A DNA stretch of 64,000 bases. It comes from Escherichia phage C6. The stretch is taken from the sequence record MW679410.1; one strand, given 5' to 3'. Position 1 is the first letter of the stretch. Each line of letters begins with the position of its first letter. Made by a program: the position numbers and the translations under genes. Of this stretch, positions 1,236-41,511 are shown one piece after another. The notes beneath the pieces are model-generated. The model worked only from the letters and a program-made list of their open reading frames with translations. It ran no database searches and had not been told where the DNA came from.

Positions 1236-1427
1236 TTAATCAAAGTATTCATAAACGAACCAGGCAGGGTTCCTGTTCGACATGATTTTAACATACTCTG
1301 ACTTAAAAGCATTTCGGAGATAATCTTCAGTAACAAGATGTTCGTCACCGGAGAAGTTGTTAACTAAAACATACCGCTTTAGTTCAGGAACGGCCAACAA
1401 ATGCTGGCCTGTTATAAAATCACTCAT
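1236..1427 (-). CDS. Hypothetical protein (45.2-like position)
   Basis: 63 aa ATG ORF; 4-nt overlap with gene 46 stop; synteny. Confidence 0.6.
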   Translation of the reverse strand: MSDFITGQHLLAVPELKRYVLVNNFSGDEHLVTEDYLRNAFKSEYVKIMSNRNPAWFVYEYFD

Positions 1428-3106
1428 TCCATCACCGTGAATCGTCCAACTTTCTTCATTTGAAGATGTTGGCCATAAGCTTGTGGGTCATGGTCTCGGT
1501 GAGAGATAATGAACACGTTCGTATCCTCAAGGCTATTCAAGATGGTTGCAATGGTCTTAACGCCTTCAGCGTCAGTAGCACTGTCAAATACCTCATCAAG
1601 AATTAACGTGCTGATATTAACACCTGATACCTTTGAAGCAATATCACGCCATGTAAAAAGTAGTGCGATATCAATACGTGCTTTCTCACCCTGTGAAAAT
1701 GAAGCATAACTAAAGTCTTCACGTCCACGTGATTTAATCGTCTCATTGAACTCTTCGTCCAGTGTAAAGACGTAGTCGGCTTCCATAATCTTCAAATAAG
1801 AATTTATCTGCTTATTAAAGATAGGAATGTATTTCTTAATAATGGAACCTTTAATACCGGTGTCCTTCAACATTTCTGTCAGAATTCCACGATGATATTT
1901 TTCCATTACTAAGGACGATTTGGTAGAGACGATTTTATCAAGCTCTGCTTGAAGCGTGGCAATCTCTTCGGCGTTACTTACGAACTCAGCAGCTGCTTGG
2001 TCGATTAATACTTTAACTTTTTTAGCTTTCTCTACAGCAGTAATGGCTTGTTGCTTATGAGTAGCTATCTGAGATTTAATAGCCAGCGCTTTATTACGTT
2101 GTTCGGTTACTTGGTCCTTAATGAGCTTGAGTTCTTGGTACTGCTCATTAATCTTATCCAAAGATTTTTGAAGCTCAAAGTTCTTATCCTTAATTTTAGT
2201 AAGGATATTTCCATGCTCTTCCAATCCTTGCATACATGTAGGACAACTACCGCCGGTTTCGTATAATTTCACGACCTTAGTAAAGGTTGCCATATCATTC
2301 TTGATTGCAAATCCTTTATTGCTCAGGTCACTCATAGAGTCGCTAGGGTCATCATCGACGATGACATTGAGTAATTCATCAGTCAGTTTTTCTATGTTGC
2401 CCTTCGCAGTCCTGGCTTCTTTAACGAGCTCATCGTACATTGTTTGTAGACGTGCTGCATTTTCACCAGATAATTTACGCTGACGTTCTTCATTGTCATT
2501 ATAAATTTTAATTTGCTGGGTAATAGAATCCTGTTTAACGTCGATTACTTGGATTTGGCTATTGGTCTCACGAATCAAAGATTTGTTCAACTTGTCCATA
2601 TCCGCTAATACAGAAACCTCTAAGAGGTCTTCCACAAGCTTTCGGCGCGCAGGGGTCGACAAACCCATGAAAGGGGTATACCCTGCTGTACCAAGTACGA
2701 CAATCTGTTTGAAACTGGTATATGACATTCCGATAAGCTGTTCAAATTCTGCTTGGAAGTCTTTACTGCTGGCAGATTCATCAAGACGTTCACCGCCACA
2801 AGAGATTTCAAAAATATTGGGTTTTTGCCCGCGCTTGATATAGTATTCTTTGCCATCATATTCCATCCACAGTTCGACCAAAAGGTCTTTCTTATTACTT
2901 GAGTTAATCAACTGCCCTTTCTTAACATCACGAAAAGGCTTACCGAACAGAGCAAATGTAACGGCTTCAAGGAACGTAGATTTCCCAGCGCCATTTTTAC
3001 CGGTGACTAAGGTCTTTTGGACCTTATCAAGTTGGATTGTAATAGATTGCTGACCTACCGACATAATATTTTTATACGTTACTTTCTTTAACTTAAACGT
3101 TTTCAT
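1424..3106 (-). CDS. 46: Recombination endonuclease subunit gp46 (Rad50/SbcC-like ATPase)
   Basis: 560 aa, same length as T4 gp46; Walker A GKNGAGKST; long coiled-coil middle; C-terminal LILDEVFD signature. Confidence 0.95.
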   Translation of the reverse strand: MKTFKLKKVTYKNIMSVGQQSITIQLDKVQKTLVTGKNGAGKSTFLEAVTFALFGKPFRDVKKGQLINSSNKKDLLVELWMEYDGKEYYIKRGQKPNIFEISCGGERLDESASSKDFQAEFEQLIGMSYTSFKQIVVLGTAGYTPFMGLSTPARRKLVEDLLEVSVLADMDKLNKSLIRETNSQIQVIDVKQDSITQQIKIYNDNEERQRKLSGENAARLQTMYDELVKEARTAKGNIEKLTDELLNVIVDDDPSDSMSDLSNKGFAIKNDMATFTKVVKLYETGGSCPTCMQGLEEHGNILTKIKDKNFELQKSLDKINEQYQELKLIKDQVTEQRNKALAIKSQIATHKQQAITAVEKAKKVKVLIDQAAAEFVSNAEEIATLQAELDKIVSTKSSLVMEKYHRGILTEMLKDTGIKGSIIKKYIPIFNKQINSYLKIMEADYVFTLDEEFNETIKSRGREDFSYASFSQGEKARIDIALLFTWRDIASKVSGVNISTLILDEVFDSATDAEGVKTIATILNSLEDTNVFIISHRDHDPQAYGQHLQMKKVGRFTVME

Positions 3107-3327
3107 GTATTGTTCTCACGAATTGTTTGTTCAGCATATTCTAGCATTTCTTCGGAAGAAGCAAACACGTCGTCAAGTTCCATGGCCCATGAAACACCTT
3201 CAGAATATTCAGAAGTGACATACATAGTTCCGGTATACCAAGAACCATCCACGTCCCATTCTACATTACCGAACCAGCCATCGCCAATATGAAAATCATG
3301 TTTATACATTTTCATCATTATAAGCAT
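3103..3327 (-). CDS. Hypothetical protein (46.1-like)
   Basis: 74 aa; ATG start; 4-nt overlap with neighbours. Confidence 0.5.
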   Translation of the reverse strand: MLIMMKMYKHDFHIGDGWFGNVEWDVDGSWYTGTMYVTSEYSEGVSWAMELDDVFASSEEMLEYAEQTIRENNT

Positions 3328-3565
3328 CCTTGATGCATGATTCAGCCATATGAATTAATGTTTCTGGAGTATCATCTACCATTACATTAAAGCTAAATTC
3401 CACAGCCCAATCAGTAGCAACATAAACTTTAATAAGCTCGTTGGTATCGCGAGTGCTCACGGCTTCAAACCAGAACTTAATTGTATTAGGTTGTCCGTCG
3501 TCATCAATAACGATACAGTCGTGTTCTAGTTCAAGTCCTGATTTTTTGAATTCATCTAAAGTCAT
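3302..3565 (-). CDS. Hypothetical protein (46.2-like)
   Basis: 87 aa; ATG start; translationally coupled to gene 47. Confidence 0.5.
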   Translation of the reverse strand: MTLDEFKKSGLELEHDCIVIDDDGQPNTIKFWFEAVSTRDTNELIKVYVATDWAVEFSFNVMVDDTPETLIHMAESCIKDAYNDENV

Positions 3566-4584
3566 CGTGTAACCTCATTATAAAGTTGTGCAGCCATAGT
3601 CTTAAGGGCTTTAACATCGTCTTCAGTGTGGCCATCAGGAAGGGCATCGATATAATCATACATCATATCCAAGAGGGACTTAACTTCATCTTCCTCTTCA
3701 GAATCATCGATATCAACACTGTTATCTACCTTAGACACGATACGTAAAGAATGGACCACCTTTTCAAGCTCTGATTCGAACTTAGTAAGACCGTCATCAA
3801 TTTTATCGACTATAACACGAACTGCGATATTTGTAAAATCTTTGTAATCGATAGTCGCGTTAGGATAATGAATCTTACGGTGCCAACAGGTTTCATTAAT
3901 GATGAAATCCATCTTATGAGTTTCTGTGTCGAAAATCCAGAATCCGCGAGGGTCGTTCTCGTCACCAGCAGTCAGGGTCCATGGCGTACCAATATACTTA
4001 ACGTTTGCTGCATCAGAAATAGTATGGAAGTGTCCAGACCATACCTGCTTATACTTCTTAAGGAAATCAGGTTCTAAACCATGAGATTTCATTCCTTTAT
4101 AGAAATAGAAACCATTTAATTCCCAGTGACCTATACAGAAATCTGCTGTGGTATTTTTGATATGCTCCATGATATCGGTAGTGTTTTCTTCACACATCCA
4201 TGGAATCAAATCAATTTCGGTGCCATCAAAATTAACCGTAGTAGGTTTCTCAATAACCTTGATATGGTCATATTTACCCAGAACTTCTGAAGCTGCGTTC
4301 GGAGTTAGGGTATTTTTGTAGTGCATATCATGGTTGCCAACGATAGTATACATGGTAATGCCGTTGGCTTTAAGCAAATCGGAGATTTCGCGAGCGAATT
4401 CCATGCACTTGTGGGTAATTGCTTTACGAACGTCAAAGATATCACCGTACTGAATCCAGACAGTAATGCCATTTGCTTTAGAATAATTAATAGCGTCTTG
4501 GATACCTTGACGTTGGATATTTTGTACCCATACATCATCGGCCTTAACTCCAAGGTGCCAGTCACCTGTGTTTAATATTTTCAT
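3562..4584 (-). CDS. 47: Recombination endonuclease subunit gp47 (Mre11/SbcD-like nuclease)
   Basis: Start trimmed to MKILNTGDWHLG, matching the recalled T4 gp47 N-terminus; phosphoesterase motifs GDWHLG, GNHD. Confidence 0.95.
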   Translation of the reverse strand: MKILNTGDWHLGVKADDVWVQNIQRQGIQDAINYSKANGITVWIQYGDIFDVRKAITHKCMEFAREISDLLKANGITMYTIVGNHDMHYKNTLTPNAASEVLGKYDHIKVIEKPTTVNFDGTEIDLIPWMCEENTTDIMEHIKNTTADFCIGHWELNGFYFYKGMKSHGLEPDFLKKYKQVWSGHFHTISDAANVKYIGTPWTLTAGDENDPRGFWIFDTETHKMDFIINETCWHRKIHYPNATIDYKDFTNIAVRVIVDKIDDGLTKFESELEKVVHSLRIVSKVDNSVDIDDSEEEDEVKSLLDMMYDYIDALPDGHTEDDVKALKTMAAQLYNEVTR

Positions 4585-4724
4585 AAGCCAAGCGCCGTTA
4601 TCGCAGTGCAAAATAAAATTATTGAAATGAACCCGTCAGGAGTGGAAAAGAATCCTATCCAACAAGCTCGTGTGAATGTATAGAATGCCATGAATAGCAC
4701 GACATATCCTAAAAATAATTCCAT
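4581..4724 (-). CDS. Small hydrophobic ORF (47 aa), stop overlapping the gene 47 start
   Basis: Read from sequence (MELFLGYVVLFMAFYTFT...); SD GAGGAGAA upstream; below track length cut-off. Confidence 0.3.
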   Translation of the reverse strand: MELFLGYVVLFMAFYTFTRACWIGFFSTPDGFISIILFCTAITALGL

Positions 4725-4763
4725 ATGTTCTCCTCAGTTTAGACTATTGTACTCCGATATACC

Positions 4764-4795
4764 TAAAGCAAAAAAGGAGCCTAAGCTCCTTTACC
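4764..4795 (-). terminator. Rho-independent terminator (minus strand)
   Basis: Minus strand GGAGCTTAGGCTCC hairpin followed by TTTTTT. Confidence 0.5.
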
Positions 4796-5227
4796 AACTA
4801 ATACACCGTACAGAGGTTCGTGATTAGACCTGAACTTGATAGGCTTATATGTAATAGTACCTTCATTTTCTGCTTTAATACGAGCGGCTTCAAATTTAAG
4901 CAACATCTCATTTTTGTCAGATTTAATCTTATCAAAATCCATCGAATTCGTCATTCATACAACCTCTTAAACTTTTTCATATTCGTCATTCATAAGCTTA
5001 AAAATCAGGGTGTTCGTCTTTCATTAGCCACCTGTCCATGTTATCATCGTTGCCACCATTTCTTAAGTTGGTGTGAATCCACCCAAACCTTGGCTACAGG
5101 CTCAATCTGAAAAATACCATCAGAATATTGACCCATCATTTTGTATTCGGTTTCGGACTGCTTAATACAGATATTACCGTATGAGCGAAGTCTAAAGGCG
5201 GCTCCAATAAGAAGCCGTTTAAAGGGT

Positions 5228-5539
5228 TTATTTACTAGAGCCATTGACGATTTCCCAAATTTGTTTGCGGGTAGATTCCCACATCAATTGAACAAGTTCA
5301 TCAGTAACAGGTTGACGGTAAATACCACGTAATTTAATTAAAGCGTACTTATATGCTTCAAAGTTGTTTTCAAGTACAGCGCCTTGGGCATGGAGATTTA
5401 AACGACGGATTTCACGAGCATTCTTCTTAAGAATCTTAGCCGCTTGAGAATTAGCTTCTTTAATATTGTGCTCTTCTAAACGTTGCTGGGCTTCTTCAAT
5501 TTGCTCATCAGTCAATTGAGAAATGTCATGGCTTTGCAT
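5228..5539 (-). CDS. Hypothetical protein
   Basis: 103 aa; ATG with AAGGA SD; occupies the position where T4 has a-gt/47.1. Confidence 0.55.
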   Translation of the reverse strand: MQSHDISQLTDEQIEEAQQRLEEHNIKEANSQAAKILKKNAREIRRLNLHAQGAVLENNFEAYKYALIKLRGIYRQPVTDELVQLMWESTRKQIWEIVNGSSK

Positions 5540-5540
5540 A

Positions 5541-5771
5541 TTAATCCTTTGGAGTCAATTCAATAGTGAAGTAGAAATTAGCGTTCTCAACATGATAACG
5601 ATAATCTACGTTATTGTCAGGAGAAGTGAATTCAATATTCCTGACGTTAAGTGGGTCAATATCAATAGGAAGGCCTTTAACATCCCGTAATATCAATTTA
5701 ATAAAATAAGGGAGTGCTTCGAAGTCTTCCATTCCATCTAAAAGTGGAGTGATATTAATCTGATGTTCCAT
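5541..5771 (-). CDS. Hypothetical protein (start uncertain)
   Basis: Track ORF starts with a non-ATG codon inside gene 55; trimmed to internal Met (MEHQ...); alternative start MEDF at 5732. Confidence 0.4.
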
Positions 5772-6312
5772 ATAAAAAATCCAGTTCGCCAACTTTAGGT
5801 TCGGCACTCTTATCAGACCCTGGTGCTTTAGTTAAAGAGGTTTCATACTGAGTCATTTTGTCGTAGATATCTTGGATAAAGGTTTCATCTGCAATACCTA
5901 CCATGTCGTCATCATTACTGTCATAGACGTTATGGACGAAGTAGCTATATTTCTTTGCCATTTCTTTACGTTCTTTTTTGATACGCTGAACGAAGGCATT
6001 AAAACAAGCCATAGTGATATATGCATGTGGGTTGTCGTATTTTGTTTCGTCGAAGTTGTGAAGACCTTTAATCGAAGCTTCGATTCCGTCAGCAATCATT
6101 TCTTGCTTCCAAGATTGGGTATATCCTGAGAAGTTGAAACGTTTACTTAGTCCTTCAGCAATGAGCATAATAGCCAAGCCAATAACGTCGTTCTGGCGAA
6201 CTATTTTATTAGGATCGGTATTTTCTCTGAGCTCTGTTTTCCATTGGGTAATAGCTTTCAGAAGCTCCTTATTATTTACATAGTTATTTTTAGTCAGTTT
6301 AATTTCGGTCAT
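5755..6312 (-). CDS. 55: Late-transcription sigma factor gp55
   Basis: 185 aa, same length as T4 gp55; long identical blocks to recalled T4 sequence ([57 protein letters not shown]). Confidence 0.95.
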
Positions 6313-6378
6313 TGTTACCTCAGATAACTCAAATCATAGGTCTATTATATCATAGTATTTGAAGACCCTTTTAAAGCA

Positions 6379-6642
6379 TCAACGGAGTAAGCAATAAGCC
6401 TGAAATACTGTTTCAAGGATTTTTTTGAACTCTTCAAAGGAAGGAGCTCCTTCAAACCCTTGGCTTTGAATGTAAAGACAGAATTGTTGGTAAAGGACCA
6501 AATATTCTGATTGGTTATATTTGGAAATATGAGACTTCCATACTTCGGAAGTCTCTCCACAAATAAACTCAACATTCATATAGCTATCTATTAAGAAAAT
6601 CCCTAGTCCTTCGTAGGCGAGGGTAGTGGATACAGGGGTCAT
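6379..6642 (-). CDS. Hypothetical protein
   Basis: 87 aa minus-strand ORF in early block. Confidence 0.45.
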   Translation of the reverse strand: MTPVSTTLAYEGLGIFLIDSYMNVEFICGETSEVWKSHISKYNQSEYLVLYQQFCLYIQSQGFEGAPSFEEFKKILETVFQAYCLLR

Positions 6643-6905
6643 TGTAGGAATCGAGCTCCTTCCAGTGCATCATCAAGATTATCAAACTCATCGACGTAAT
6701 CAACACCGCCAACTTCGTCCTTCGCATACAACCAATACTGGTGGAATTCGTATTCAATAATAAAGTGGTCGCCCTCAATCTGGAGAACCCCATCGCCATT
6801 AAATTGAACTGCATAACCGGTAAAGCGGACATCATTCAGGAGTTCTTCTTTCATAGCAATCATTTCCAAGTTTTTATCGTAATTAGAGAGTTTTATTTTA
6901 ATCAT
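6639..6905 (-). CDS. Hypothetical acidic protein
   Basis: 88 aa; 4-nt overlaps with flanking ORFs. Confidence 0.5.
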   Translation of the reverse strand: MIKIKLSNYDKNLEMIAMKEELLNDVRFTGYAVQFNGDGVLQIEGDHFIIEYEFHQYWLYAKDEVGGVDYVDEFDNLDDALEGARFLQ

Positions 6906-7146
6906 TTAAATAATCCTCAAATTCATTTAATGTCATGCCTTCGTCCCAAGCTGTTTTAGGATTAGGCATTTTCATATAAGTGGTCTCAGAGCTTATAGGA
7001 AATATCCTGAAATCACGACGGATTACACTTAGCCTCTTAGCCGCTTTTATAACAGTTTCAATATTATCCATCATGGGTGTACGTTGGAAACCGGCTAAAG
7101 CTTTAAGGACGATTATAACCGATACACCTTCAGGCAAATTACTCAT
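6898..7146 (-). CDS. Hypothetical protein
   Basis: 82 aa; translationally coupled. Confidence 0.5.
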   Translation of the reverse strand: MSNLPEGVSVIIVLKALAGFQRTPMMDNIETVIKAAKRLSVIRRDFRIFPISSETTYMKMPNPKTAWDEGMTLNEFEDYLND

Positions 7147-7472
7147 TTTGCCGCCTTAACAATTTTAAGGTCGACGAATTTTTTCTTACGTTGGTTTTTC
7201 ATACGACGGATAGTTTTATCCGAGATTTCACCAGGGGCCCAAGCTTTAGATTCTACACCAAAGGCAGCGACATCGAATTCATCAAGGATATATTGAACCA
7301 GGATTTCACGAATACCGTTCTTACCAATTTTCTGGTCTTTAGAGTGCATGATTGGTAACAGTTCAGCAACCCATTGGTCAAGAACCTGAGGAGTTACAAA
7401 ACCGGTTTTCATCAGTTCGTTTACTTTATCGAAAGCGAAAGAGTTCAGTACGTTTTTAATAGCTTGTGACAT
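7143..7472 (-). CDS. Hypothetical protein
   Basis: Track start is TTG upstream of a promoter; trimmed to MSQAIKNV with SD GAGGAAA. Confidence 0.5.
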   Translation of the reverse strand: MSQAIKNVLNSFAFDKVNELMKTGFVTPQVLDQWVAELLPIMHSKDQKIGKNGIREILVQYILDEFDVAAFGVESKAWAPGEISDKTIRRMKNQRKKKFVDLKIVKAAK

Positions 7473-7511
7473 AATAATTTCCTCAGTTTTAAAGTTATAA
7501 TCCGTAGGACC

Positions 7512-7541
7512 ATTATACTCTGGTCCCAAGAGTTTGTAAAC
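7512..7541 (-). promoter_or_regulatory. T4 early-type sigma70 promoter (-35 GTTTAC, -10 TATAAT)
   Basis: Minus strand GTTTACAAACTCTTGGGACCAGAGTATAAT; 18-nt spacer. Confidence 0.55.
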
Positions 7542-7741
7542 TATTTTTGTGCTTTAGCACCTTTCCAACCTTCATACATCATTGCGGCGGAAATTAACAA
7601 AGCACCCGAGCAACTTGAATATTTGTGATTCCAAAACCAGTTTAGAAAAACTTCGTCATCAATACCTTGGGCCATCATATTTTCAAAGAACTGACGACGG
7701 GCTTCAGCAATACGTTGTGATAATTTAGATTCAGGATTCAT
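7541..7741 (-). CDS. Hypothetical protein (start trimmed)
   Basis: Track ORF 7541..7789 overlaps upstream ORF; internal Met chosen. Confidence 0.35.
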   Translation of the reverse strand: MNPESKLSQRIAEARRQFFENMMAQGIDDEVFLNWFWNHKYSSCSGALLISAAMMYEGWKGAKAQK

Positions 7742-7742
7742 T

Positions 7743-7874
7743 TTAAATTTTCCAATTGCCATTTTCATCAATGAATTCAATCCAGTCATTTACTGACCAC
7801 TTGGTTGTATCGCCTTTTGGAGCCACATTTAAAGTATATAACCCTTGCTTAAAAAGCATTCGTTTGATATTCAT
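7743..7874 (-). CDS. Hypothetical small protein (start trimmed)
   Basis: Track ORF 7743..7967 overlaps upstream ORF by 86 nt; internal Met chosen. Confidence 0.3.
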   Translation of the reverse strand: MNIKRMLFKQGLYTLNVAPKGDTTKWSVNDWIEFIDENGNWKI

Positions 7875-7881
7875 ATTTTCC

Positions 7882-8175
7882 TCAGCTGTAACGATAACAT
7901 TCGTTTGATTTACGTTTTGCAACTTGATGAGAAGTATTGTAATCAGGTTCATCGTCGTTGTAAACATCTTTTTTCAGCTTTCTCACTTCTTTACGAAGCT
8001 GGCGATTCATTTCATTCTTAACTTCAGAATCAACACCGCGCATACGTTTCCACTTGTCAGAACGGAAGATATTTTCTTCAACCAAATCCTGACTTACGCC
8101 GTCCGGTGCTTTACGACGTCCGGAATAATAAAAATCTTTTACAGACAATTCTTTACGACGGATAGTTTTACCCAT
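7882..8175 (-). CDS. Hypothetical basic protein
   Basis: 97 aa, Lys/Arg-rich. Confidence 0.45.
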   Translation of the reverse strand: MGKTIRRKELSVKDFYYSGRRKAPDGVSQDLVEENIFRSDKWKRMRGVDSEVKNEMNRQLRKEVRKLKKDVYNDDEPDYNTSHQVAKRKSNECYRYS

Positions 8176-8177
8176 AG

Positions 8178-8432
8178 TTACCTCAGCAGTTTGTATCCAA
8201 TAAGATTTTTAATGTATTGGACATCTTTGACATCCAAATCTAACTTAATATCTTTCAGGCGTTCGGCCAGAGTAAGAAATGTTACACGTTTCCAATTCTT
8301 AACAGGACAGCAATAAGTTTTAGGGCCGTTAGCGATTTCAATATTCTTATCAGTGATGGTGATAAAAATCAAACGTTCATCATCAAGATTAAGGGTGGCG
8401 ACATTTTTCATTGAGTGTAATTTCAGGCTCAT
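8178..8432 (-). CDS. Hypothetical protein
   Basis: 84 aa ATG ORF. Confidence 0.5.
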   Translation of the reverse strand: MSLKLHSMKNVATLNLDDERLIFITITDKNIEIANGPKTYCCPVKNWKRVTFLTLAERLKDIKLDLDVKDVQYIKNLIGYKLLR

Positions 8433-8611
8433 GATTTAATTTCCTTTGCTACTGAACAAAATAAAGAACGGTCGCACACCATCAATGGGGCATCAGGGTG
8501 AGTCAAAGGTTGATACCATACATCAAGATTTGTTACCTTTGTTACTTGAACAGGGTAGCCATTTACTGAATAATACTGGTCGACTTTAATTTCTTTATCT
8601 TGGATAGTCAT
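8429..8611 (-). CDS. Hypothetical protein
   Basis: 60 aa; SD GAGGAG; directly downstream of early promoter. Confidence 0.5.
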   Translation of the reverse strand: MTIQDKEIKVDQYYSVNGYPVQVTKVTNLDVWYQPLTHPDAPLMVCDRSLFCSVAKEIKS

Positions 8612-8640
8612 AATGTTCTCCTCATGTGTTGATAGGATAG

Positions 8641-8669
8641 ACTATAACACGTGAGGAGAGGAAGTAAAC
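8641..8669 (-). promoter_or_regulatory. T4 early-type promoter with inverted repeat that can pair with the downstream SD
   Basis: Minus strand GTTTAC, 17-nt spacer, TATAGT; CTCCTCACGTGTT in spacer is complementary to AACACATGAGGAG at the SD. Confidence 0.5.
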
Positions 8670-8670
8670 A

Positions 8671-8988
8671 CTAATCTTCAATTAAATCTTGGTCATAGCC
8701 AAGTTCAATCAAAAGTGATTTGAAGGCAGGAATATTTTCTATTTTCTTATTATCGACAAAGATGACAGGATAGCGTATCGCTAAGCTCTTGAAGCCTGCA
8801 CGTTTGGCCAATGATACTATAAGAGGCTTGTCATATACTGCGCCTGACGGCGTCTGGTTAATCACAGGATAGAAAGTATGTGGGATAGAAAGGGAATTTA
8901 GGAGCGATAGAACTGCAATGCACCCTGGACAGCGCATGACTGTCTCAGGGATACCGTAAATCTCAATTTTAGTTAACTTTTGGTCCAC
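8671..8988 (-). CDS. Thioredoxin-fold protein (glutaredoxin/NrdH-like, CPGC motif)
   Basis: 105 aa; IYG...CPGC redox-motif context; lies where T4 has nrdH-type genes. Confidence 0.45.
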   Translation of the reverse strand: MDQKLTKIEIYGIPETVMRCPGCIAVLSLLNSLSIPHTFYPVINQTPSGAVYDKPLIVSLAKRAGFKSLAIRYPVIFVDNKKIENIPAFKSLLIELGYDQDLIED

Positions 8989-9265
8989 AGGAAATAACTC
9001 CTTGGTAGTCCCAGGTTTTTAGAACTTCGTCCTCATTAGTTCCATACGGGACGTAAATCTGAATAAGAAAACCAGTGTCATCGAAAGAGAAATAAACAGT
9101 CGGTTTAATACCATGAATCTCTGACAGGGCATAGATGTCCTTGAGGTCTTCTTCCTTACCGACAAAGAATTCCGGGTTCAGGTCACAGTCATGGAAGTAC
9201 CAATCATCACCGAATTTGTCCCATGCGGTCCAATTGGTAGCTACATATTCTTCAAAACGTTTCAT
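8969..9265 (-). CDS. Hypothetical protein
   Basis: 98 aa ATG ORF. Confidence 0.5.
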   Translation of the reverse strand: MKRFEEYVATNWTAWDKFGDDWYFHDCDLNPEFFVGKEEDLKDIYALSEIHGIKPTVYFSFDDTGFLIQIYVPYGTNEDEVLKTWDYQGVISCGPKVN

Positions 9266-9489
9266 TCTTTCACCTTCATCATTTTGGAAATAACACCATG
9301 AACAGACTGGATTCGTTTTTCGAACTCGGACCCTTCAAGACCTTTTTCAGTACTCAGGGCGCCGATAATAACAAACAGTAATCCAAACGGGATGACCAGG
9401 ATTAAAAGGCATACGATAAACAGGGCAAATGTAATATTGGCCAGGATATCAGAAACAGCATTACGAAATTTGTTCATTAAAGAACCCAC
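9262..9489 (-). CDS. Small membrane protein
   Basis: 75 aa with one long hydrophobic helix. Confidence 0.5.
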   Translation of the reverse strand: MGSLMNKFRNAVSDILANITFALFIVCLLILVIPFGLLFVIIGALSTEKGLEGSEFEKRIQSVHGVISKMMKVKE

Positions 9490-9598
9490 ATGTTAGTTAC
9501 AACAAATAACCATTGAGCAGGATACTCAACACCCATAATACGAACCGCATCGTTAAGAGATTCGGCTAAAGCATAAAATGTGTAGCCATAAAAATTAA

Positions 9599-10072
9599 TC
9601 ATTTAAGCGATTTCCTCAGTTGTTTTTTGAATGAATCCACCATTTGTTTCTTAGTGGCAGATTCATTATAAGTCATTCCGTGTGAAAGCATTTCAGCAAT
9701 CATTTCTTCCTTACCTAACCTGCTGAACTCTTTGGTTTTATCAGGAACGAAATTAGGATGAATATTGTTTTCAGTATAATCAGCTTTCAGATAGACCAGC
9801 AAATTCTCTAACCATTCGAGGTAGTCAACGTTTTGACCTTTAAGACCAGAACGGTTGAACTTATGCTTCATTTGTCCTTCTGCTGCATTGCACAGGTTAC
9901 ATAGTAAACCACGAACCTTACCGGCTTTTGGCCCGTTTAACTCGTGGTCGTGGTCAAGGTGGTTACTTTGAACATCAGGGTTTAATTCACGTTTACAAAT
10001 CAAACACTTACCACATTGTGCATCATAAAGTTTTTGTTTTTCTTCTTTGTATAATTTGCCGGTCAACAACAT
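9599..10072 (-). CDS. 49: Endonuclease VII (Holliday junction resolvase) gp49
   Basis: 157 aa, same length as T4 gp49; near-identical to recalled T4 sequence (MLLTGKLYKEEKQK..NHLDHDHELNGPKAGKVRGLLCNLCNAAEGQMKHKFNRSGLKGQ). Confidence 0.95.
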   Translation of the reverse strand: MLLTGKLYKEEKQKLYDAQCGKCLICKRELNPDVQSNHLDHDHELNGPKAGKVRGLLCNLCNAAEGQMKHKFNRSGLKGQNVDYLEWLENLLVYLKADYTENNIHPNFVPDKTKEFSRLGKEEMIAEMLSHGMTYNESATKKQMVDSFKKQLRKSLK

Positions 10073-10079
10073 AATAAAC

Positions 10080-10112
10080 CCTTACCATTATTAGATAAGG
10101 GTATTTATTAAT
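10080..10112 (-). promoter_or_regulatory. Hairpin over the gene 49 translation initiation region with adjacent late-promoter-like AATAAATA
   Basis: Minus strand TAATAAATA-CCCTTA-loop-TAAGGG-TTTATT-ATG; matches known T4 gene 49 arrangement. Confidence 0.35.
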
Positions 10113-10667
10113 ATCCTAATAGTTTAGCAGTGCAACTTAGCACTAACAACAATCCGAATAAAACAACTCCGACCCAAAATACCGTAATAAGGGCATCCAT
10201 ATCAGACCCCATAGAACGAACGATGCAAACGTTTAAATTGACGAATCATCTTTTTAGTAGGACGGGTATATAATCCTATACAGGTGGCCATAAACTGGTC
10301 GGTAGGGCTTCCTTTGATAAGAAGTTTCCAGACCTTATCACCATTCAACTTTTCGGTATAGACTAATTTGGTTTTCATCAGAACGCCTTATCAGCAAAGC
10401 GAAGTTGAGCTTCAAGCCAATGGATATAGTCGGCTGCAGCTTTAATCAAATCGGATTCTAGGTCAGGTAAAGAACCCGAATCCGACAACTCGTAAAGCGA
10501 ATGTTCAATCAGACGGCCTTTGTGAAGGCCAATTTCAATTTTGGTACTCATATCCAAACTCCATATCGATTAAATCATTGTTTGAAGGTTCATTATACTC
10601 TATTTCGGAATCGTTGTAAACCGGTTCCTCTGGCTCGGTAGTTTCCCACCGAGCGACATACCATGGC

Positions 10668-10976
10668 TTAACGGTCACACCACCAACTCGATACTTCAAA
10701 ATCAGGTTCACCGTCTTCCCAATACCAAGGGCCAATTGGGTGCCAATCGCCATGTTCATCTTCTTCAAATTCTTCAGATTCAAGCCCAACGTATTGCCAT
10801 TGGACTTCATAAGCAGTGCCACCAATTACAACGGTGTTCTCACCATACGGGTGAGCTACAACAAAGTCAATACCTTCTGCTTTAGCCAACCAAACCATAT
10901 ATTCGTATAGCTTATATTCCAGGTCATCTTCGGTGCCATCACCTAGAAAAATGGTTTGTTCGTTTAATTCAATCAT
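10668..10976 (-). CDS. Hypothetical acidic protein
   Basis: 102 aa; Glu/Asp/Trp-rich. Confidence 0.45.
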   Translation of the reverse strand: MIELNEQTIFLGDGTEDDLEYKLYEYMVWLAKAEGIDFVVAHPYGENTVVIGGTAYEVQWQYVGLESEEFEEDEHGDWHPIGPWYWEDGEPDFEVSSWWCDR

Positions 10977-11218
10977 AATTCCACCATAAATTCAAATAGC
11001 TGGTCACGTACACAAGTATCAGTCCAACCCCATTCGGTGGCTTCTTCTTTTAACCAATCCGGGAGATTTGCCAATACGGTTTCTTTACTAGGCGCAGGAG
11101 TATCAAACTCTCTTGCGCAGGTTCCATAAGCTATATCAAATTCAGTCATTTGAAGTTCCAGAATGAAGCACCAACCAGAAATAAAGGCCAACAAATCATA
11201 GACGTCAGCCACCAACAA
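10973..11218 (-). CDS. Hypothetical protein
   Basis: 81 aa; coupled to downstream ORF. Confidence 0.45.
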   Translation of the reverse strand: MLVADVYDLLAFISGWCFILELQMTEFDIAYGTCAREFDTPAPSKETVLANLPDWLKEEATEWGWTDTCVRDQLFEFMVEL

Positions 11219-11309
11219 AAGTCACCTGCACCGAAATCATCTAATTTAGCTAGGGTCTTAGCATAACCAATACCGATGATAAGATACAAAATACCCAACA
11301 ATAATTCAA

Positions 11310-11573
11310 TCATTTGAAATACGCTCGCAGTTGGTCAAAGCCACCAATAGAAGTTCCGTCTGGAGCAAATACCTGAGGCATAGTCAAACCCACCTGAGAT
11401 TCGCGACCAAGAGCAGCCAAGAGTTCAGCAATCTTCTCGTCATCAAATACACCTTTTTCCGGCATTACGTTAATGAATTCGTAAGGTTGTTTCTTAACAT
11501 CAAGCAGACGTTTGGCATTATCACAGAAAACACAACGGTGAATATTTGAATCGTAACCATAAACTTTAAACAT
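11310..11573 (-). CDS. nrdC: Thioredoxin (glutaredoxin) NrdC
   Basis: 87 aa; near-identical to recalled T4 thioredoxin (MFKVYGYDSNIH.CV.CDNAKRLL.VKKQP.EFIN.MPEKGVFDDEKIAELL). Confidence 0.95.
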   Translation of the reverse strand: MFKVYGYDSNIHRCVFCDNAKRLLDVKKQPYEFINVMPEKGVFDDEKIAELLAALGRESQVGLTMPQVFAPDGTSIGGFDQLRAYFK

Positions 11574-11574
11574 T

Positions 11575-11811
11575 TTAAATTCCTAATATTTGTTTGAATG
11601 CTTCAGAACGGTCAAGTTCTGTTCCATATTTTTCCATGTGCTCATATTTTAAATCATACACATCAGATAGTATATTATTATACGAGCGAGTTAAAGCAGA
11701 TTTTAAAACTGAATAACTATCCGGGAATTTACCATGCTCTTTATAATAAGCTAGAGTAAGTTCGCGGACTGCCTTATCGGCAGCCTCTACATATTCTTTA
11801 CGCTTTGCCAT
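11575..11811 (-). CDS. Hypothetical protein (start trimmed to MAKRKEY)
   Basis: Track ORF has hydrophobic N-terminal extension overlapping upstream gene. Confidence 0.4.
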
Positions 11812-12139
11812 TTTCGTCTCGCTCAAATTTATGTTTACAATGGCGACATTTGTAACGAAGATTACTAGTCTGCCAATGGACCAATTGAACCTGTTCTGTG
11901 CCGCACTTAGGACAGTTAGGAACATTCTTAGAAGCTTGTTCTCGTCGTGCGACCATAGCCATTACAGCGTCCCAATTAACGACATCACCATAATCATCAC
12001 AGCCATGAATTTTACCAACCAATTCAGCTTCAACATCCGCGGCTTTAATAAATTTTAAAAGACCTTTATTAAGTCCCGCTGCGGGGGCCCATTCTGGAAA
12101 TGCAGTTTCTGCAATATCTTCAGCTAAACGTTGTTTCAT
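11798..12139 (-). CDS. Zinc-ribbon protein
   Basis: 113 aa; CPKCG...CRHC cysteine pairs. Confidence 0.5.
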
Positions 12140-13146
12140 TTCAGCAGCTCCAGAGCCTGTTCAAGACGGTCTAAACGATTGGTAGACTCTTCCCAAAGTT
12201 TCTTGGCAGCGGTATATTGCCCGGTCAGTTTTTTGTTGATAGCCAGGGCATCTTTATACGCTTTTTCTAAGGCAACGATTTCCGGTAACTTGGATTTAGT
12301 AATTGGTGTAGGGGCCATGATAGGGCTGTTCAAGTCGTTAATCAAGTCTTCTAATGTAGCAGGCTCTTTATCAGTATTCACAATTTCCTCACATTTTTCT
12401 TGGTAAATTTCAGCGTCAGTTTTTGGAACAGGGCATTTGATTTCGCGAACTGTTACTAAAGCTTCATATCCTTTCCAGCCTAAGTGGTGTTTGATTTCTT
12501 GAATCTCATATTTCTCTACTGTATCCATCAAAGCTAAAGCCTGTTCTACCATATTCAGGGTATTGTAGGAAATATCTTGGTATTTCGAAACTTCAACTTC
12601 ATCTTTAGGTTTCCAACTAGGCGACCAAATAATAGAAATAAGTACCTTCCCTTTATAGTTGTTTGTTTTAATCATGCCATTAGCCATAGGGTGGATAGTA
12701 CGGCAATCACCCTTTACAAAGGTTTTGGTTGCTGCTTTTAGAATTAATGCAGAGTTAGCCTTAAATTCGCCAGCCCAACGTTGTGGAAATAGGCCCTTAG
12801 GGTCGGTACCTTTAATTTTGACATACCCTTTTAAAACATCACCAAACCATTGGTAGCTAACAACGTGGCTAGAACCTGGATATTTCTCTTTGCCAAACTC
12901 TGAAAGGATGTCCTTATTGACCAGACGCGAAAGCAGTCGAGAACTTTTAAATGTATCTACGATATCAGTAATAAACAAACGACCCGCAATCTTTTCGATT
13001 TCATCTTTGAAACAACCAGATAGTGCTCCATCAATTTGGTCTACCCATTTATTGATATTAGAAACTATTACCACATATGGGGTTAATGGAGGGGTGTTGG
13101 CAGTGATATACGTAGTAAAGGCATTAATGTATTCAGTACGAGTCAT
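12136..13146 (-). CDS. Hypothetical protein with C-terminal coiled coil
   Basis: 336 aa; SD GAGGAGAA; early promoter directly upstream. Confidence 0.6.
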   Translation of the reverse strand: MTRTEYINAFTTYITANTPPLTPYVVIVSNINKWVDQIDGALSGCFKDEIEKIAGRLFITDIVDTFKSSRLLSRLVNKDILSEFGKEKYPGSSHVVSYQWFGDVLKGYVKIKGTDPKGLFPQRWAGEFKANSALILKAATKTFVKGDCRTIHPMANGMIKTNNYKGKVLISIIWSPSWKPKDEVEVSKYQDISYNTLNMVEQALALMDTVEKYEIQEIKHHLGWKGYEALVTVREIKCPVPKTDAEIYQEKCEEIVNTDKEPATLEDLINDLNSPIMAPTPITKSKLPEIVALEKAYKDALAINKKLTGQYTAAKKLWEESTNRLDRLEQALELLK

Positions 13147-13172
13147 GATATTCTCCTCAAGTTGATAGAAAG

Positions 13173-13202
13173 ATTATACTCCATCCATCCTTGGATGTAA
13201 AC
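13173..13202 (-). promoter_or_regulatory. T4 early-type promoter
   Basis: Minus strand GTTTAC, 18-nt spacer, TATAAT. Confidence 0.55.
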
Positions 13203-13203
13203 A

Positions 13204-14109
13204 TTATTTTAGAGCTAATACTGCCGCGCGGAGCTTGTCACGCTGGAGTTCCATGTTCTTGATGCGAATCAATACGTCTTGGATACTCTTTTTCTCATCT
13301 TCGATCTGACCGTTTAAACGGTGGATTGATTCCTGGATGTAGTCCTCATGATACTTCTCGATAGGTTTCATCGTAGGGTTAGTAACCACCATAGAATTAT
13401 CAGGTGCAATTTTCCAATGATATGGTTTGGAATTGAATGGACTCGGCACAGCCGTGGTTTTGAATTTGTCATAGGCTGCATACTGGCCTACACTGTCACA
13501 TGATACTGTAGAAGTAGAGATAGAGATACGTCGTTCCATTTGTGGTTCCTTTTGTTGGGATTGATAAGGGGCATAAGACAAAAGGTATTCGCGAGTTAGT
13601 TTAATATTAAAATAAACTGCATCAGCCCGACCAGAACAATCAGCGTATTCATCGGTTGTAACTTTATATGATTCCACAGCCTTAATACGAGTCATTGCTT
13701 CTCTGAATAAGGTTTCAAATGCTTCACGAAGGGCTTTATTACCTTTTGAGGTAGGACGGAAACGAACTTGAATACCGTCTGCCAAAATATTAATGACCAG
13801 GTTACGAGCCGTAAAATTAATATTCTTGATATTAACAGGAACCGTAGAAATGCGCCCTGCTGTAGCCAAGAGGTCTTTGATATTAGCTCGCAATGTTGCA
13901 CCGAACAGGTGGGCCGGGCAACGGCAATAATCGTTCAAAGAAGAGATATAAGTTCCTTTACGGCCTACGCCATAAGTATAATTACCATTACAAATATGGC
14001 CAAAGTCAGCTAGGCGGTCAATAGCGATACGACGTGTGGTATCAAAATCATATCGGGAATATTCTTTACGTGTTTTAATGTTCATATTAAAGTCCAAATA
14101 ATTTTTCAT
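13204..14109 (-). CDS. Hypothetical protein
   Basis: 301 aa ATG ORF. Confidence 0.6.
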   Translation of the reverse strand: MKNYLDFNMNIKTRKEYSRYDFDTTRRIAIDRLADFGHICNGNYTYGVGRKGTYISSLNDYCRCPAHLFGATLRANIKDLLATAGRISTVPVNIKNINFTARNLVINILADGIQVRFRPTSKGNKALREAFETLFREAMTRIKAVESYKVTTDEYADCSGRADAVYFNIKLTREYLLSYAPYQSQQKEPQMERRISISTSTVSCDSVGQYAAYDKFKTTAVPSPFNSKPYHWKIAPDNSMVVTNPTMKPIEKYHEDYIQESIHRLNGQIEDEKKSIQDVLIRIKNMELQRDKLRAAVLALK

Positions 14110-16134: not shown

Positions 16135-17115
16135 TTATTTCAGAAGGGTAACTTCAGCGATTTCGTTCCAGTCATTTTTATCGGTGGCAATGAAGTCCGC
16201 CAGATAAAGAGCTGTACGTAATGATACGTTACGAAGACGAGATACATTAGCCTTCATCCATGCTAAAGCTTGATAAGTCTCAGCATCAGTCAGACCTCGA
16301 TTTTGCATCATATCAGTGGACAGGATAACGTCTTCAACACGAACCATAATCTCTTCGTTAGAGTGAACTCCGAGGTCTAAGTAAACTGAACGAGATACTA
16401 AAGCCTGGAGGTGTGGAGCAAGTTTAGTTCCACGCTCTAATTCACGGTCGATATCAACGTTGGTGATGAACACGATGGTGCCTTCGTATTCGAATTCTTT
16501 ATCGATGTTTTTGTCATCGAGATAAGAACTTGAAGTGCTCCAGCACACCTTACGTTTTTCACCGGTATCCAATGCTGCTTTTAACAGGTTCAGGATATCC
16601 ATATCAGAGAATACATCAACATCATCGATAAGAAGAACACTATTAGGGCCGCGGTTATTCCAAAGCTGCTCGTAAAGACCGATTCCACTAATCTTTCCGT
16701 TGATTGATTTATATTCGATAGTTTCATTTTCGTGGGCATTCTGTAATGCTTTATCCAAAGAATACGTTTTACCAATACCTGCGGCACCAGAGATGATAAG
16801 GGAACGAATTTTACCATCGATGATTCCGTTAGTCATCATGTTCATTACTTTAAAACGTTTGTTGATGCGATGTTTCATTTCTTCAGAGGATTCAGTAACA
16901 ACTGCAGGAGCTTCAGCACCTTCCATTTCAACGTCACATTTGAACACCCATACACCACGTTCAACACCATCAATCTGTACGAATACCTTGCCATCACCGA
17001 GGTGAGCTTCGGATTCATGAATTTTATTAGGGAACCAGGTTTTACCTGAACTCATGAACGTACCAGAGATTTCATTACCGCGATAGATACCTTTGTTGAT
17101 TTTGATAGTTAACAT
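16135..17115 (-). CDS. P-loop NTPase (AAA-like ATPase)
   Basis: Start trimmed to MLTIK (SD GGAGAA); Walker A GAAGIGKT and Walker B-like LLIDDVD. Confidence 0.6.
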   Translation of the reverse strand: MLTIKINKGIYRGNEISGTFMSSGKTWFPNKIHESEAHLGDGKVFVQIDGVERGVWVFKCDVEMEGAEAPAVVTESSEEMKHRINKRFKVMNMMTNGIIDGKIRSLIISGAAGIGKTYSLDKALQNAHENETIEYKSINGKISGIGLYEQLWNNRGPNSVLLIDDVDVFSDMDILNLLKAALDTGEKRKVCWSTSSSYLDDKNIDKEFEYEGTIVFITNVDIDRELERGTKLAPHLQALVSRSVYLDLGVHSNEEIMVRVEDVILSTDMMQNRGLTDAETYQALAWMKANVSRLRNVSLRTALYLADFIATDKNDWNEIAEVTLLK

Positions 17116-17217: not shown

Positions 17218-17973
17218 ATGATTATATCAGCAAAAACCATCGATGAATTGAACGAGAAGGTCCAGTTAGCATTAGACGATAACTGGCATCTTTTTGGTTC
17301 AACGGTAGTCCTTCCTAATACTGTAACTGATAACAGCGAACGATTCTTTCAAACGATGTCAAAATCAGTTACCCAGATTCCAGGACCTCCTGGACAAAAA
17401 GGTGATAAAGGTGACCCCGGAAATCCTGGCGACCCGGGAGTTCAAGGTGAACCAGGAAAGTCTTCATACCAATTATGGATTGATGAAGGTAATAGTGGAA
17501 CAGTAGATGATTTTTTGACTGCAATAGCAGGAAAGAGAAGAAAATCAGAAGTGTTTTGGAGTGGTATAAACGTTCTATTAACTAATGGTGCGACTTCAAA
17601 CATAATTAGTATTTTAAAGGGGATTCCGCCGACAGCAGGGACTCTATCTCCGTTTTTTAGAACTGCTGATGATAAGATGTGGCCATATAACCAAGACAGA
17701 AGCCTAATGTTTAAACTCAACCTTATTGGTAATTTTACAGGAGTCTCGCAAGCTCGAAGTATAACATTAAATTTCGTTGGAACCAACGGAAACACCTATA
17801 CACAGAACCGTCCAGAAAATGCTACAGATATTTTGTCTTTTACGACGTTCTTTAGCATTGATAAAGATGGGGCAATGGCAACCAATGGTACAGCTATAAC
17901 TGTTACGCCAAATGGCGGCAACTTTACAATAACCTCTGCATTGTTAGTAGCTGAACAAACAGTGACTTCATAA
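17218..17973 (+). CDS. Collagen-like repeat protein, fibre-like, late-expressed
   Basis: 251 aa; strong SD AAAGGAGAA; nine G-X-Y triplets (GPPGQKGDKGDPGNPGDPGVQGEPGKS) followed by SSYQLWIDEGNSGTVDDFL; opposite strand to all neighbours. Confidence 0.7.
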   Translation: MIISAKTIDELNEKVQLALDDNWHLFGSTVVLPNTVTDNSERFFQTMSKSVTQIPGPPGQKGDKGDPGNPGDPGVQGEPGKSSYQLWIDEGNSGTVDDFLTAIAGKRRKSEVFWSGINVLLTNGATSNIISILKGIPPTAGTLSPFFRTADDKMWPYNQDRSLMFKLNLIGNFTGVSQARSITLNFVGTNGNTYTQNRPENATDILSFTTFFSIDKDGAMATNGTAITVTPNGGNFTITSALLVAEQTVTS

Positions 17974-18236: not shown

Positions 18237-19203
18237 CGAACTTGTCCCAGAACTTCATATCTACCTTATCAGGCATACCATTCTTAGCGGCCCAGATAGC
18301 ATTAGTTTCGACTTCATCAACGATAGCTTCAAGTTCGGCCTGTACATCTTTAAAAGCATGAAGCCCTTGTTTGATTTCAAGGATAAACGGTGCTGTACGT
18401 AAAGGATATTGGAGGTCGCCTGTTTGATAGATTTCCTTCAACTGATAACCAGCACGATAAGCGTGGCTCAGAGCTTTCCAGTCAATACCTTCATTAGCTT
18501 CAGCTTTACGAGCACGTTCACCGTATTCCGCATCGAGCTTATTCAGAGATTGCTTGAGCTCGATTAATGACAGAGTGGTTTGGTATTTACGTCCGAGAAC
18601 AGTATAGAACGTTTGAGGTCCGGTTTTCTCATGGTTATGGAATACCCATTCACAGAACTCATTTTCAGGGAGTCGATGTTTGATATCTTCTACCTTAGTG
18701 CGACGTTGCTTAGTCGAACCGTCTTCTTGATAATCGACCCACTGTTCAGGAATCTGGTTAACAATAGCCAGTACACCACGCAGAGCAGCCAGTCGAGAAC
18801 CCTTAACGCCATATTTAGAAGCTTGCTTACGGACGTACCCTAAATAGGCTTTCATGTTGGTTGTATAGAACAGAGAACGGTTGCCTTGGATAAATTTCCA
18901 TACATCAGGTAAATCAGATTTAACCACCATTTCAGGTGGAGTGTGAATCATATCCAGAGCAACGGTTTCGCCTTCAGCCGCTAGTTTAAAGAAATATTTC
19001 AGACTGTAAAGCTCGTGGTCAACATCATCTTTAGTGTTTTTGGAAGCGGTGTTATTCGTATTCAGGTTGGTATGGTTCATAGCCGTACCTAACAGAATAT
19101 CACGCGGATGTGGAACAAAGATTTCTTTAAAATCGACATCAGATTCCGGAGTACTTGTTCCGTAAAGATGGCTACCGAAGTAGCCTTTCATAACTGTTCT
19201 CAT
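18193..19203 (-). CDS. Pol-beta superfamily nucleotidyltransferase
   Basis: 336 aa; N-terminal GS-x9-13-DxD motif (GSHLYGTSTPESDVDF). Confidence 0.55.
   Translation of the reverse strand: MRTVMKGYFGSHLYGTSTPESDVDFKEIFVPHPRDILLGTAMNHTNLNTNNTASKNTKDDVDHELYSLKYFFKLAAEGETVALDMIHTPPEMVVKSDLPDVWKFIQGNRSLFYTTNMKAYLGYVRKQASKYGVKGSRLAALRGVLAIVNQIPEQWVDYQEDGSTKQRRTKVEDIKHRLPENEFCEWVFHNHEKTGPQTFYTVLGRKYQTTLSLIELKQSLNKLDAEYGERARKAEANEGIDWKALSHAYRAGYQLKEIYQTGDLQYPLRTAPFILEIKQGLHAFKDVQAELEAIVDEVETNAIWAAKNGMPDKVDMKFWDKFVEEVYLDNHNAYYR

Positions 19204-41503: not shown

Positions 41504-41511
<8 letters not shown>

Follow-up and report, generated by a model that had tools for sequence, protein, structure and literature searches.

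T4-like phages differ in how they modify the cytosines of their DNA. In T4, gp42 provides hydroxymethylcytosine (hmC) and the glucosyltransferases a-gt and b-gt act alongside it; a-gt sits in a run of genes ordered 47 / 47.1 / a-gt / mobB / a-gt.2 / a-gt.3 / a-gt.4 / a-gt.5 / 55, in which the names a-gt.2 to a-gt.5 reflect only adjacency to a-gt. RB69 (Mosigvirus) uses a different chemistry: experiments have established its gp48 as a 5-hydroxy-dCMP synthase, which converts dCMP to 5-hydroxy-dCMP and not to 5-hydroxymethyl-dCMP (PMC13326640), and the 5-hydroxycytosine of its DNA is mono- and di-arabinosylated (PMC13326640, PMC13390438). The Shewanella phage Thanatos, which has a single transferase of this kind, is mono-arabinosylated, while for the first arabinosyltransferase in vitro activity has not been shown even for RB69 or DLP3 (PMC13326640). 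The same study predicts that 5-hydroxycytosine (5hodC) biosynthesis extends to the Dhakaviruses (PMC13326640). For one of these, JS98, homologues of genes 42, 56, alc and denB, and no glucosyltransferases, were stated in 2010 (PMC2993671). Finally, accessory genes of T4-type genomes are known to be shuffled at promoter/terminator modules (PMC2839356, PMC4122927).

Here, we compare this region of a 64-kb stretch of phage DNA, referred to in its entirety as the window, with these systems. The reading that we consider well supported, and likely to hold, is that of a JS98-like phage without hmC glucosylation, in which a cassette between gene 43/imm and uvsX would make arabinosyl-5-hydroxycytosine, the interval between 47 and 55 is an ordinary gene block, and a short direct repeat in that block is the scar of insertions or deletions.

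A conserved small-gene block between genes 47 and 55

DNA identity and gene order assign the window to a T4-type phage of the genus Dhakavirus, the JS98-like group. It is 95-98% identical at the DNA level to the Dhakavirus genomes IME341, IME08, AnYang, JS98 and JS10, with about 95-97% for IME341 and IME08; two of its 25-kb segments match IME341, IME08 and AnYang at 95-96% identity over 94-96% of their length, and the gene order of its 46-55 region is identical to that of JS98. The left part of the window has its genes on the minus strand throughout, arranged as in T4: 45 (38-736), rpbA, 45.2, 46 (1424-3106), 46.1, 46.2, 47 and 55, with 46.1 present here and not in IME341. The interval of interest, from the start codon of gene 47 to the stop codon of gene 55, spans 4585-5754 (1170 bp) and is bounded and filled by the following genes:

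3562-4584, minus strand: gene 47 (ATG at 4584, stop at 3562), SbcD/Mre11-like recombination nuclease subunit; PHROG 100, E = 5e-136; 71% identity with T4 gp47
4581-4724, minus strand: orthologue of 47.1, 47 aa, predicted membrane protein; 78% identity to T4 47.1; PHROG 6693
4781-4954, minus strand: orthologue of a-gt.2, 57 aa (53 aa if the internal ATG at 4942 is used); 57% identity to T4 a-gt.2; Pfam DUF5486
5044-5244, minus strand: orthologue of a-gt.3, 66 aa; 45% identity to T4 a-gt.3; PHROG 1648
5228-5539, minus strand: orthologue of a-gt.4, 103 aa; 41% identity to T4 a-gt.4; Pfam DUF2654
5541-5771, minus strand: orthologue of a-gt.5, 76 aa, or 88 aa if an upstream GTG is the start; 41% identity to T4 a-gt.5; Pfam DUF5491
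5755-6312, minus strand: gene 55, late sigma factor; PHROG 234, E = 9e-69; 79% identity with T4 gp55

The genes are tightly packed: the ATG of gene 47 (4584) overlaps the stop codon of 47.1, and a-gt.5 and the 3' end of gene 55 have 17 nt in common, exactly as annotated in JS98. The first-pass annotation of this DNA, made from the sequence alone, had described an interval of about 1.1 kb with small ORFs only and without a-gt. Both statements agree with our analysis, in which neither an a-gt-sized ORF in the interval nor a tblastn match to a-gt in the window was found. Its inventory of small ORFs (47, about 53, 103 and about 77-88 aa) named four real genes and overlooked the 66-aa a-gt.3, which brings the total to five.

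All five small genes have orthologues in T4, at 41-78% amino acid identity, and T4 likewise has a terminator and a MotA-box promoter after a-gt.2. The likeness within the genus is much closer: JS98, JS10, IME08 and IME341 share the order 47, 47.1, a-gt.2, a-gt.3, a-gt.4, a-gt.5, 55 as well as the terminator and MotA box of the window at 92-98% DNA identity. They differ from it only by small indels, among them the number of copies of a short repeat (three in the window and JS98, two in IME341). 47.1 is missing from the Dhakavirus contigs L009, L010 and L014. On this comparison, the interval is an ordinary conserved block of small genes, namely 47.1, a-gt.2, a-gt.3, a-gt.4 and a-gt.5, and the absence of a-gt is not special to this phage but a trait of its genus, described in 2010 (PMC2993671).

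The slot occupied by a-gt in T4

What, then, lies at the position where T4 has mobB and a-gt? In the window, this is a 56-bp spacer between a-gt.2 and 47.1 with two predicted elements:

4773-4792, minus strand: predicted hairpin of an intrinsic terminator, which lies where a-gt.2 ends and overlaps the stop codon of that gene; AAAGGAGC-TTAG-GCTCCTTT, then a T run
4745-4773, minus strand: putative MotA-type middle-promoter motif ahead of 47.1/47, found by pattern scan; TTTTGCTTTA, 12 nt, TACAAT

Read in the direction of transcription, the hairpin (4792-4773) is followed by TTTTGCTTTA, 12 nt, TACAAT, the Shine-Dalgarno sequence GAGGAG and then 47.1. A terminator had already been noticed in the interval, and the hairpin bears this out: its folding energy is -13.3 kcal/mol (z = -2.3), and T4 and RB69 share it, with substitutions in both arms of the stem (GGAGC/GCTCC versus GGAACTC/GAGTTCC), all four hairpins compared having folding energies of -12 to -14 kcal/mol. 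In T4 and RB69, the terminator of a-gt.2 is followed by the same MotA box, and a strict MotA-promoter pattern has only 4 minus-strand matches in the 64 kb, the slot motif among them. This T4-specific pattern was more informative for the interval than a scan for sigma-70-type promoters, which gave no enrichment over shuffled sequences; the late-promoter motif TATAAATA does not occur within 4300-6600. The motifs thus suggest that the spacer acts as a terminator and a middle promoter, and the terminator has no demonstrated link to DNA modification.

T4 is built differently. There, the elements after the a-gt.2 stop codon are, in order, the hairpin GGAGC-TTCG-GCTCC, the MotA box TTGCTTTA, 12 nt, TAAAAT and then mobB, while a-gt is followed by a second hairpin, AGGGC-TTCG-GCCCT, with TTAGCTTTA, TATAAT and then 47.1. 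T4 therefore holds mobB, an HNH homing endonuclease gene, and a-gt (400 aa) between two terminator/promoter modules, whereas the window has one module and no insert. A search of the 56-bp spacer for remnants of a-gt or mobB found none, and judged by these motifs the slot is a single terminator/middle-promoter module without a trace of a-gt. RB69 also has an empty slot, with no a-gt between 47 and 55, and additionally lacks 47.1. Klebsiella phage Mineola (Jiaodavirus), which has the same a-gt.5 to a-gt.2 block beside 55 and 47, has this slot filled by an a-gt 66% identical to that of T4, and both mobB and 47.1 are absent. The 66% identity between the T4 and Mineola a-gt, against 71% for the neighbouring gp47, fits a long residence of the gene in this slot.

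Among Dhakavirus contigs, the slot is empty, holds 47.1 or contains ORFs of 205-269 aa, two of which show weak, sub-threshold signatures of homing endonucleases (NUMOD, GIY-YIG). By analogy, this variation looks like the modular shuffling of T4-like phages at promoter and terminator boundaries (PMC2839356, PMC4122927). The same work describes PeSLs, composite promoter/terminator cassettes of T4-like phages; as here, they place a stem-loop and a promoter at the boundary of a variable slot, and in T4 related stem-loop/promoter copies flank the insert. PeSLs were, however, defined with early promoters, whereas the motif in the window is of the MotA (middle) type.

We also searched the window together with the complete genome of IME341, its closest relative. 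With T4 a-gt (400 aa), the best tblastn E values were 0.86 in the window and 0.07 in complete IME341, both short chance matches; T4 b-gt had no match at E < 1 in either, and the beta-glucosyl-alpha-glucosyltransferase (ba-gt) of RB14 (T2/T6-type) reached at best E = 0.046 over 35 aa, which is no homologue. The first-pass annotation had proposed to look elsewhere in the genome for a glucosyltransferase of equivalent function, and this search, covering the window and complete IME341, brought up no homologue of a-gt, b-gt or ba-gt and hence nothing that contradicts its claim. A Pfam scan of 20 large ORFs of the window also found no glycosyltransferase family; this is a weak negative that leaves room for another unrecognised transferase, since Pfam equally misses a 297-aa transferase of the relatives (see below). 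As judged from these searches, alpha-glucosylation of the phage DNA almost certainly does not take place. That an a-gt of this phage has moved to the roughly 105 kb of the genome beyond the window is hardly credible, even though accessory genes of T4-type genomes do shuffle at promoter/terminator modules (PMC2839356, PMC4122927): complete IME341 has no match, none of the top 40 matches to the 47-55 region of the window is among 40 a-gt-bearing records (a spread sample of 657), and a glucosyltransferase acting on hmC would be without substrate if the base is 5-hydroxycytosine.

The repeat-built spacer between a-gt.3 and a-gt.2

The second conspicuous feature of the interval lies upstream of the slot, at the beginning of a-gt.2:

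4946-5035, minus strand: repeat-built spacer; ATGAA(A/T)GACGAA occurs three times, twice as part of an exact 14-nt repeat, together with a 13-codon truncated ORF whose last residues before the stop codon are KDEHPDF

A 13-bp direct repeat had been reported to occur twice near 4945-4994. The repeat is indeed present, at 4946-4959 and 4981-4994, 35 nt apart, and its exact length is 14 nt (ATTCGTCATTCATA). On the coding strand it reads ATGAATGACGAAT and forms the start region of a-gt.2, with a diverged third copy, ATGAAAGACGAAC, just upstream. A 14-mer that recurs within 100 nt is found at just three loci of the 64-kb window, which makes a chance origin unlikely.

Comparison with relatives suggests how the spacer was built. 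The 13-codon ORF of the window is the stump MDRWLMKDEHPDF, followed by a stop codon, of a 28-codon ORF that in relatives ends in DEHPDF and a stop. The short repeat occurs once in contig L015, twice in IME341, Bp7, L010 and L011, and three times in the window and JS98; in L009, L014 and L016 an additional ORF of 28 codons, with the DEHPDF ending, is found instead. The two-copy form, as in IME341, equals the form of the window minus 31 nt between two GACGAA units. The 14-nt repeat is therefore best read as the probable trace that repeat-mediated gains and losses of tiny ORFs have left in a hyperplastic spacer. We regard it as improbable that it is instead a functional regulatory element, that is, a protein-binding site or a translational control of a-gt.2. 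In favour of such an element, the repeat is exact and rare in the window, and it contains the start codon region of a-gt.2 and adjoins a Shine-Dalgarno-like AAGAGG. However, phages with 93-98% identity elsewhere have anything from 1 to 4 copies; the indels that separate the variants, some of which add or remove the 28-codon ORF, begin and end precisely at repeat units, and the 35-nt spacing is not conserved. No link between the repeat and DNA modification has been demonstrated.

Predicted cytosine chemistry of the Dhakaviruses

If the phage does not glucosylate its cytosines, how would it modify them? The first-pass annotation had concluded that it probably modifies its hydroxymethylcytosine differently from T4, or not by alpha-glucosylation, and had pointed to arabinosyltransferases as genes to look for. 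The genes that appear to answer this question lie outside the window. In IME341, homologues of the modification genes of the RB69/DLP3/HY126 type are found in one array between gene 43/imm and uvsX, which starts about 5.4 kb beyond the left edge of the window and places the cassette 5-10 kb outside it:

IME341, 557 aa: NTP_transferase and APH domains; 41-43% identity to RB69 gp52:53
IME341, 119 aa: HAD-like phosphatase; 63% identity to RB69 gp51
IME341, 178 aa: P-loop kinase; 37% identity to RB69 gp45
IME341 gp236, 232 aa: thymidylate-synthase-like; 79% identity to RB69 gp48, 25% to T4 gp42
IME341, 297 aa: single protein modelled as a GT-B glycosyltransferase; 65-70% identity to RB69 gp46 and gp47

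RB69 and the Dhakavirus relatives of the window thus share gp45, gp46:47, gp48, gp51 and gp52:53 homologues at the same position between 43 and uvsX. The two systems are not identical: a search of complete IME341 found no homologue of RB69 gp3 (p003, the second transferase), gp50 (p050) or gp55 (p055, the arabinose-5-phosphate isomerase), and the IME341 array begins with a gene for a 166-aa lipoprotein. Since the decisive genes lie outside the window, their presence in this phage has to be judged from its relatives. All eight public contigs that encode the exact product of the window's gene 45, and that are otherwise 92-98% identical to the window, contain the same six-gene array, and a copy of the 297-aa gene at at least 95% identity is found in 49 phage records, next to 51 records with the 47-55 region of the window at at least 90%. 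This makes it probable that the phage carries the cassette in its own genome.

The 232-aa ThyA-like enzyme of the array matches the PDB entries 9iqc/9iqu, whose sequences are about 99% identical to RB69 gp48, with E = 1e-125, compared with 5e-6 for T4 gp42. The direction of the earlier claim, a modification other than alpha-glucosylation, holds up, there being no a-gt, b-gt or ba-gt homologue in the window or in IME341; its hmC premise is probably wrong, because the enzyme that the relatives have in place of gp42 is 79% identical to RB69 gp48 and only 25% to T4 gp42. The modified base is thus probably 5-hydroxycytosine and not hydroxymethylcytosine. The 297-aa protein has no Pfam match and no match in a PDB sequence search, so that a comparison of folds was needed. 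Its AlphaFold model (55-sequence alignment; pLDDT 95.1, pTM 0.90) retrieves GT-B enzymes with Foldseek, namely MshA (3c4q), BshA, HepE and UDP-GlcNAc 2-epimerases, at E values of 1e-6 to 1e-4, and is in agreement with the published model of RB69 gp46:47. We therefore model it as a GT-B glycosyltransferase, and in the relatives a homologue of the RB69 candidate for the first arabinosyltransferase accordingly stands beside the synthase gene.

On this basis, a pathway can be proposed. A flavin-type 5-hydroxy-dCMP synthase would take the place of T4 gp42; a bifunctional arabinose-phosphate kinase/UDP-sugar pyrophosphorylase, together with the HAD phosphatase of the same cassette, would provide the activated sugar; and one GT-B glycosyltransferase would place arabinose on the 5-hydroxycytosine that replaces cytosine in the DNA. 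The cassette also encodes the P-loop kinase, and a dNMP kinase of the phage is encoded within the window itself, at 41504-42265. The product would probably carry a single arabinose per base, as the second RB69 transferase (gp3) is missing, and the sugar precursor would be arabinose-5-phosphate of the host, as the phage isomerase is missing too. E. coli makes its own arabinose-5-phosphate via KdsD/GutQ, which could render a phage isomerase dispensable, and both missing proteins may be accessory to the system.

How secure is this assignment, considering that our literature search found no nucleoside analysis of any Dhakavirus? One alternative is a DNA with non-glycosylated hydroxymethylcytosine or 5-hydroxycytosine, in which the phage relies on anti-restriction proteins. 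This option was raised for JS98 in 2010 (PMC2993671), and it would be in keeping with the missing a-gt, b-gt and ba-gt homologues and with a first arabinosyltransferase step that has not been reconstituted in vitro (PMC13326640). Against it stand the intact sugar-nucleotide synthesis gene, HAD phosphatase and modelled GT-B transferase that the relatives keep in an operon with the ThyA-like gene, and the transferase is at least 95% identical across about 49 genomes. Such conservation of the cassette is hard to explain unless it is used, and we consider a bare base very unlikely. A closer competitor, if still an unlikely one, is that what the cassette adds is not arabinose, or that the number of sugars differs, giving a variant modification not yet described. 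The sugar or the chain length could differ, because the enzyme that activates the sugar shares no more than 41-43% identity with RB69 gp52:53 and the isomerase, gp50 and the second transferase have no homologue in IME341; nor did we find any published chemistry for the genus. However, three of the enzymes closely resemble those of RB69, namely the base synthase at 79% identity, the transferase at 65-70% and the phosphatase at 63%; the host KdsD/GutQ can stand in for the isomerase, and Thanatos, with its single transferase, is mono-arabinosylated (PMC13326640). We therefore favour arabinosyl-5-hydroxycytosine as the predicted modification.

Both parts of this picture are already known, the missing glucosyltransferases since 2010 (PMC2993671) and the predicted chemistry since 2026 (PMC13326640), and the locus adds nothing new to them. 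More tentatively, and as a possibility to which we give limited credence, Dhakaviruses may run a minimal form of 5-hydroxycytosine glycosylation, with one transferase, no isomerase or gp50-like enzyme and arabinose-5-phosphate drawn from the host, the product being mono-arabinosylated or carrying another pentose. If this were true, type IV restriction and other defences would affect them differently from both T4 and RB69. Depending on its cytosine modification, a T4-like phage evades or sets off different defences, be they restriction, CRISPR or type IV (GmrSD/BrxU-like) systems, and its DNA can or cannot be cut, sequenced or engineered with standard enzymes. In practice, this phage should be treated as RB69-type (arabosyl-5-hydroxycytosine) and not as T4-type (glucosyl-hmC), in line with the published expectation for the genus.

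Genes outside the a-gt slot

IME341 (L003, a close Dhakavirus relative), 13121-13621: gene that lies between imm and the sugar-activation gene; its 166-aa product carries a lipoprotein signal peptide
Window 3103-3327, minus strand: 46.1-like gene, 74 aa, DUF5487
Window 6312-12136: region from gene 55 to the nrdC-type genes
Window 8671-8988: nrdH
Window 17218-17973, plus strand: 251-aa ORF with a collagen-like repeat and PF16532

In every Dhakavirus contig, the first gene of the modification array is the lipoprotein gene, whose product starts with the signal peptide MKKLIIAMSILLSGC... and has no homologue in RB69 or T4 within the regions compared. The 46.1-like gene is common to the window and JS98; IME341 and several other close relatives do not have it, and DNA alignments with these phages break at its site. 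Beyond gene 55, nrdH is present. T4 encodes its anaerobic ribonucleotide reductase (nrdD, nrdG) between 55 and 49; no homologue of either gene was found in the 64-kb window or the whole IME341 genome. Within the nrdC region, the 251-aa ORF, which combines its collagen-like repeat with an Sf6-type tail-needle-knob domain (E = 7e-33), is oriented opposite to every neighbour.

A mobB-like ORF between genes 3 and 2

Window 42938-43588, minus strand, ATG at 43588: ORF of about 216 aa, mobB/mobC-like

Flanked by genes 3 and 2, this ORF shares 48% identity over 107 aa with T4 mobB and is also similar to mobC. IME341 does not have it, which suggests that a homing-endonuclease gene was inserted here recently.

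The a-gt slot in relatives and in T4

L011 5803-6558, L015 2751-3560 and L016 2233-2850 (Dhakavirus contigs): slot ORFs of 205-269 aa
T4 (L001) 16598-16630 and 18705-18740: paired modules around the mobB/a-gt insert

In these three contigs, the ORFs fill the place between a-gt.2 and 47, and two of them match homing-endonuclease domains (NUMOD, GIY-YIG) weakly, below threshold; 47.1 itself is missing in three further contigs (L009, L010, L014). The a-gt slot of T4 is a recurrent insertion site. The T4 insert has one of two similar modules on each side, in both of which a hairpin precedes a GCTTTA box and a -10 element; such bracketing suggests how recombination could add or remove the mobB/a-gt cassette.
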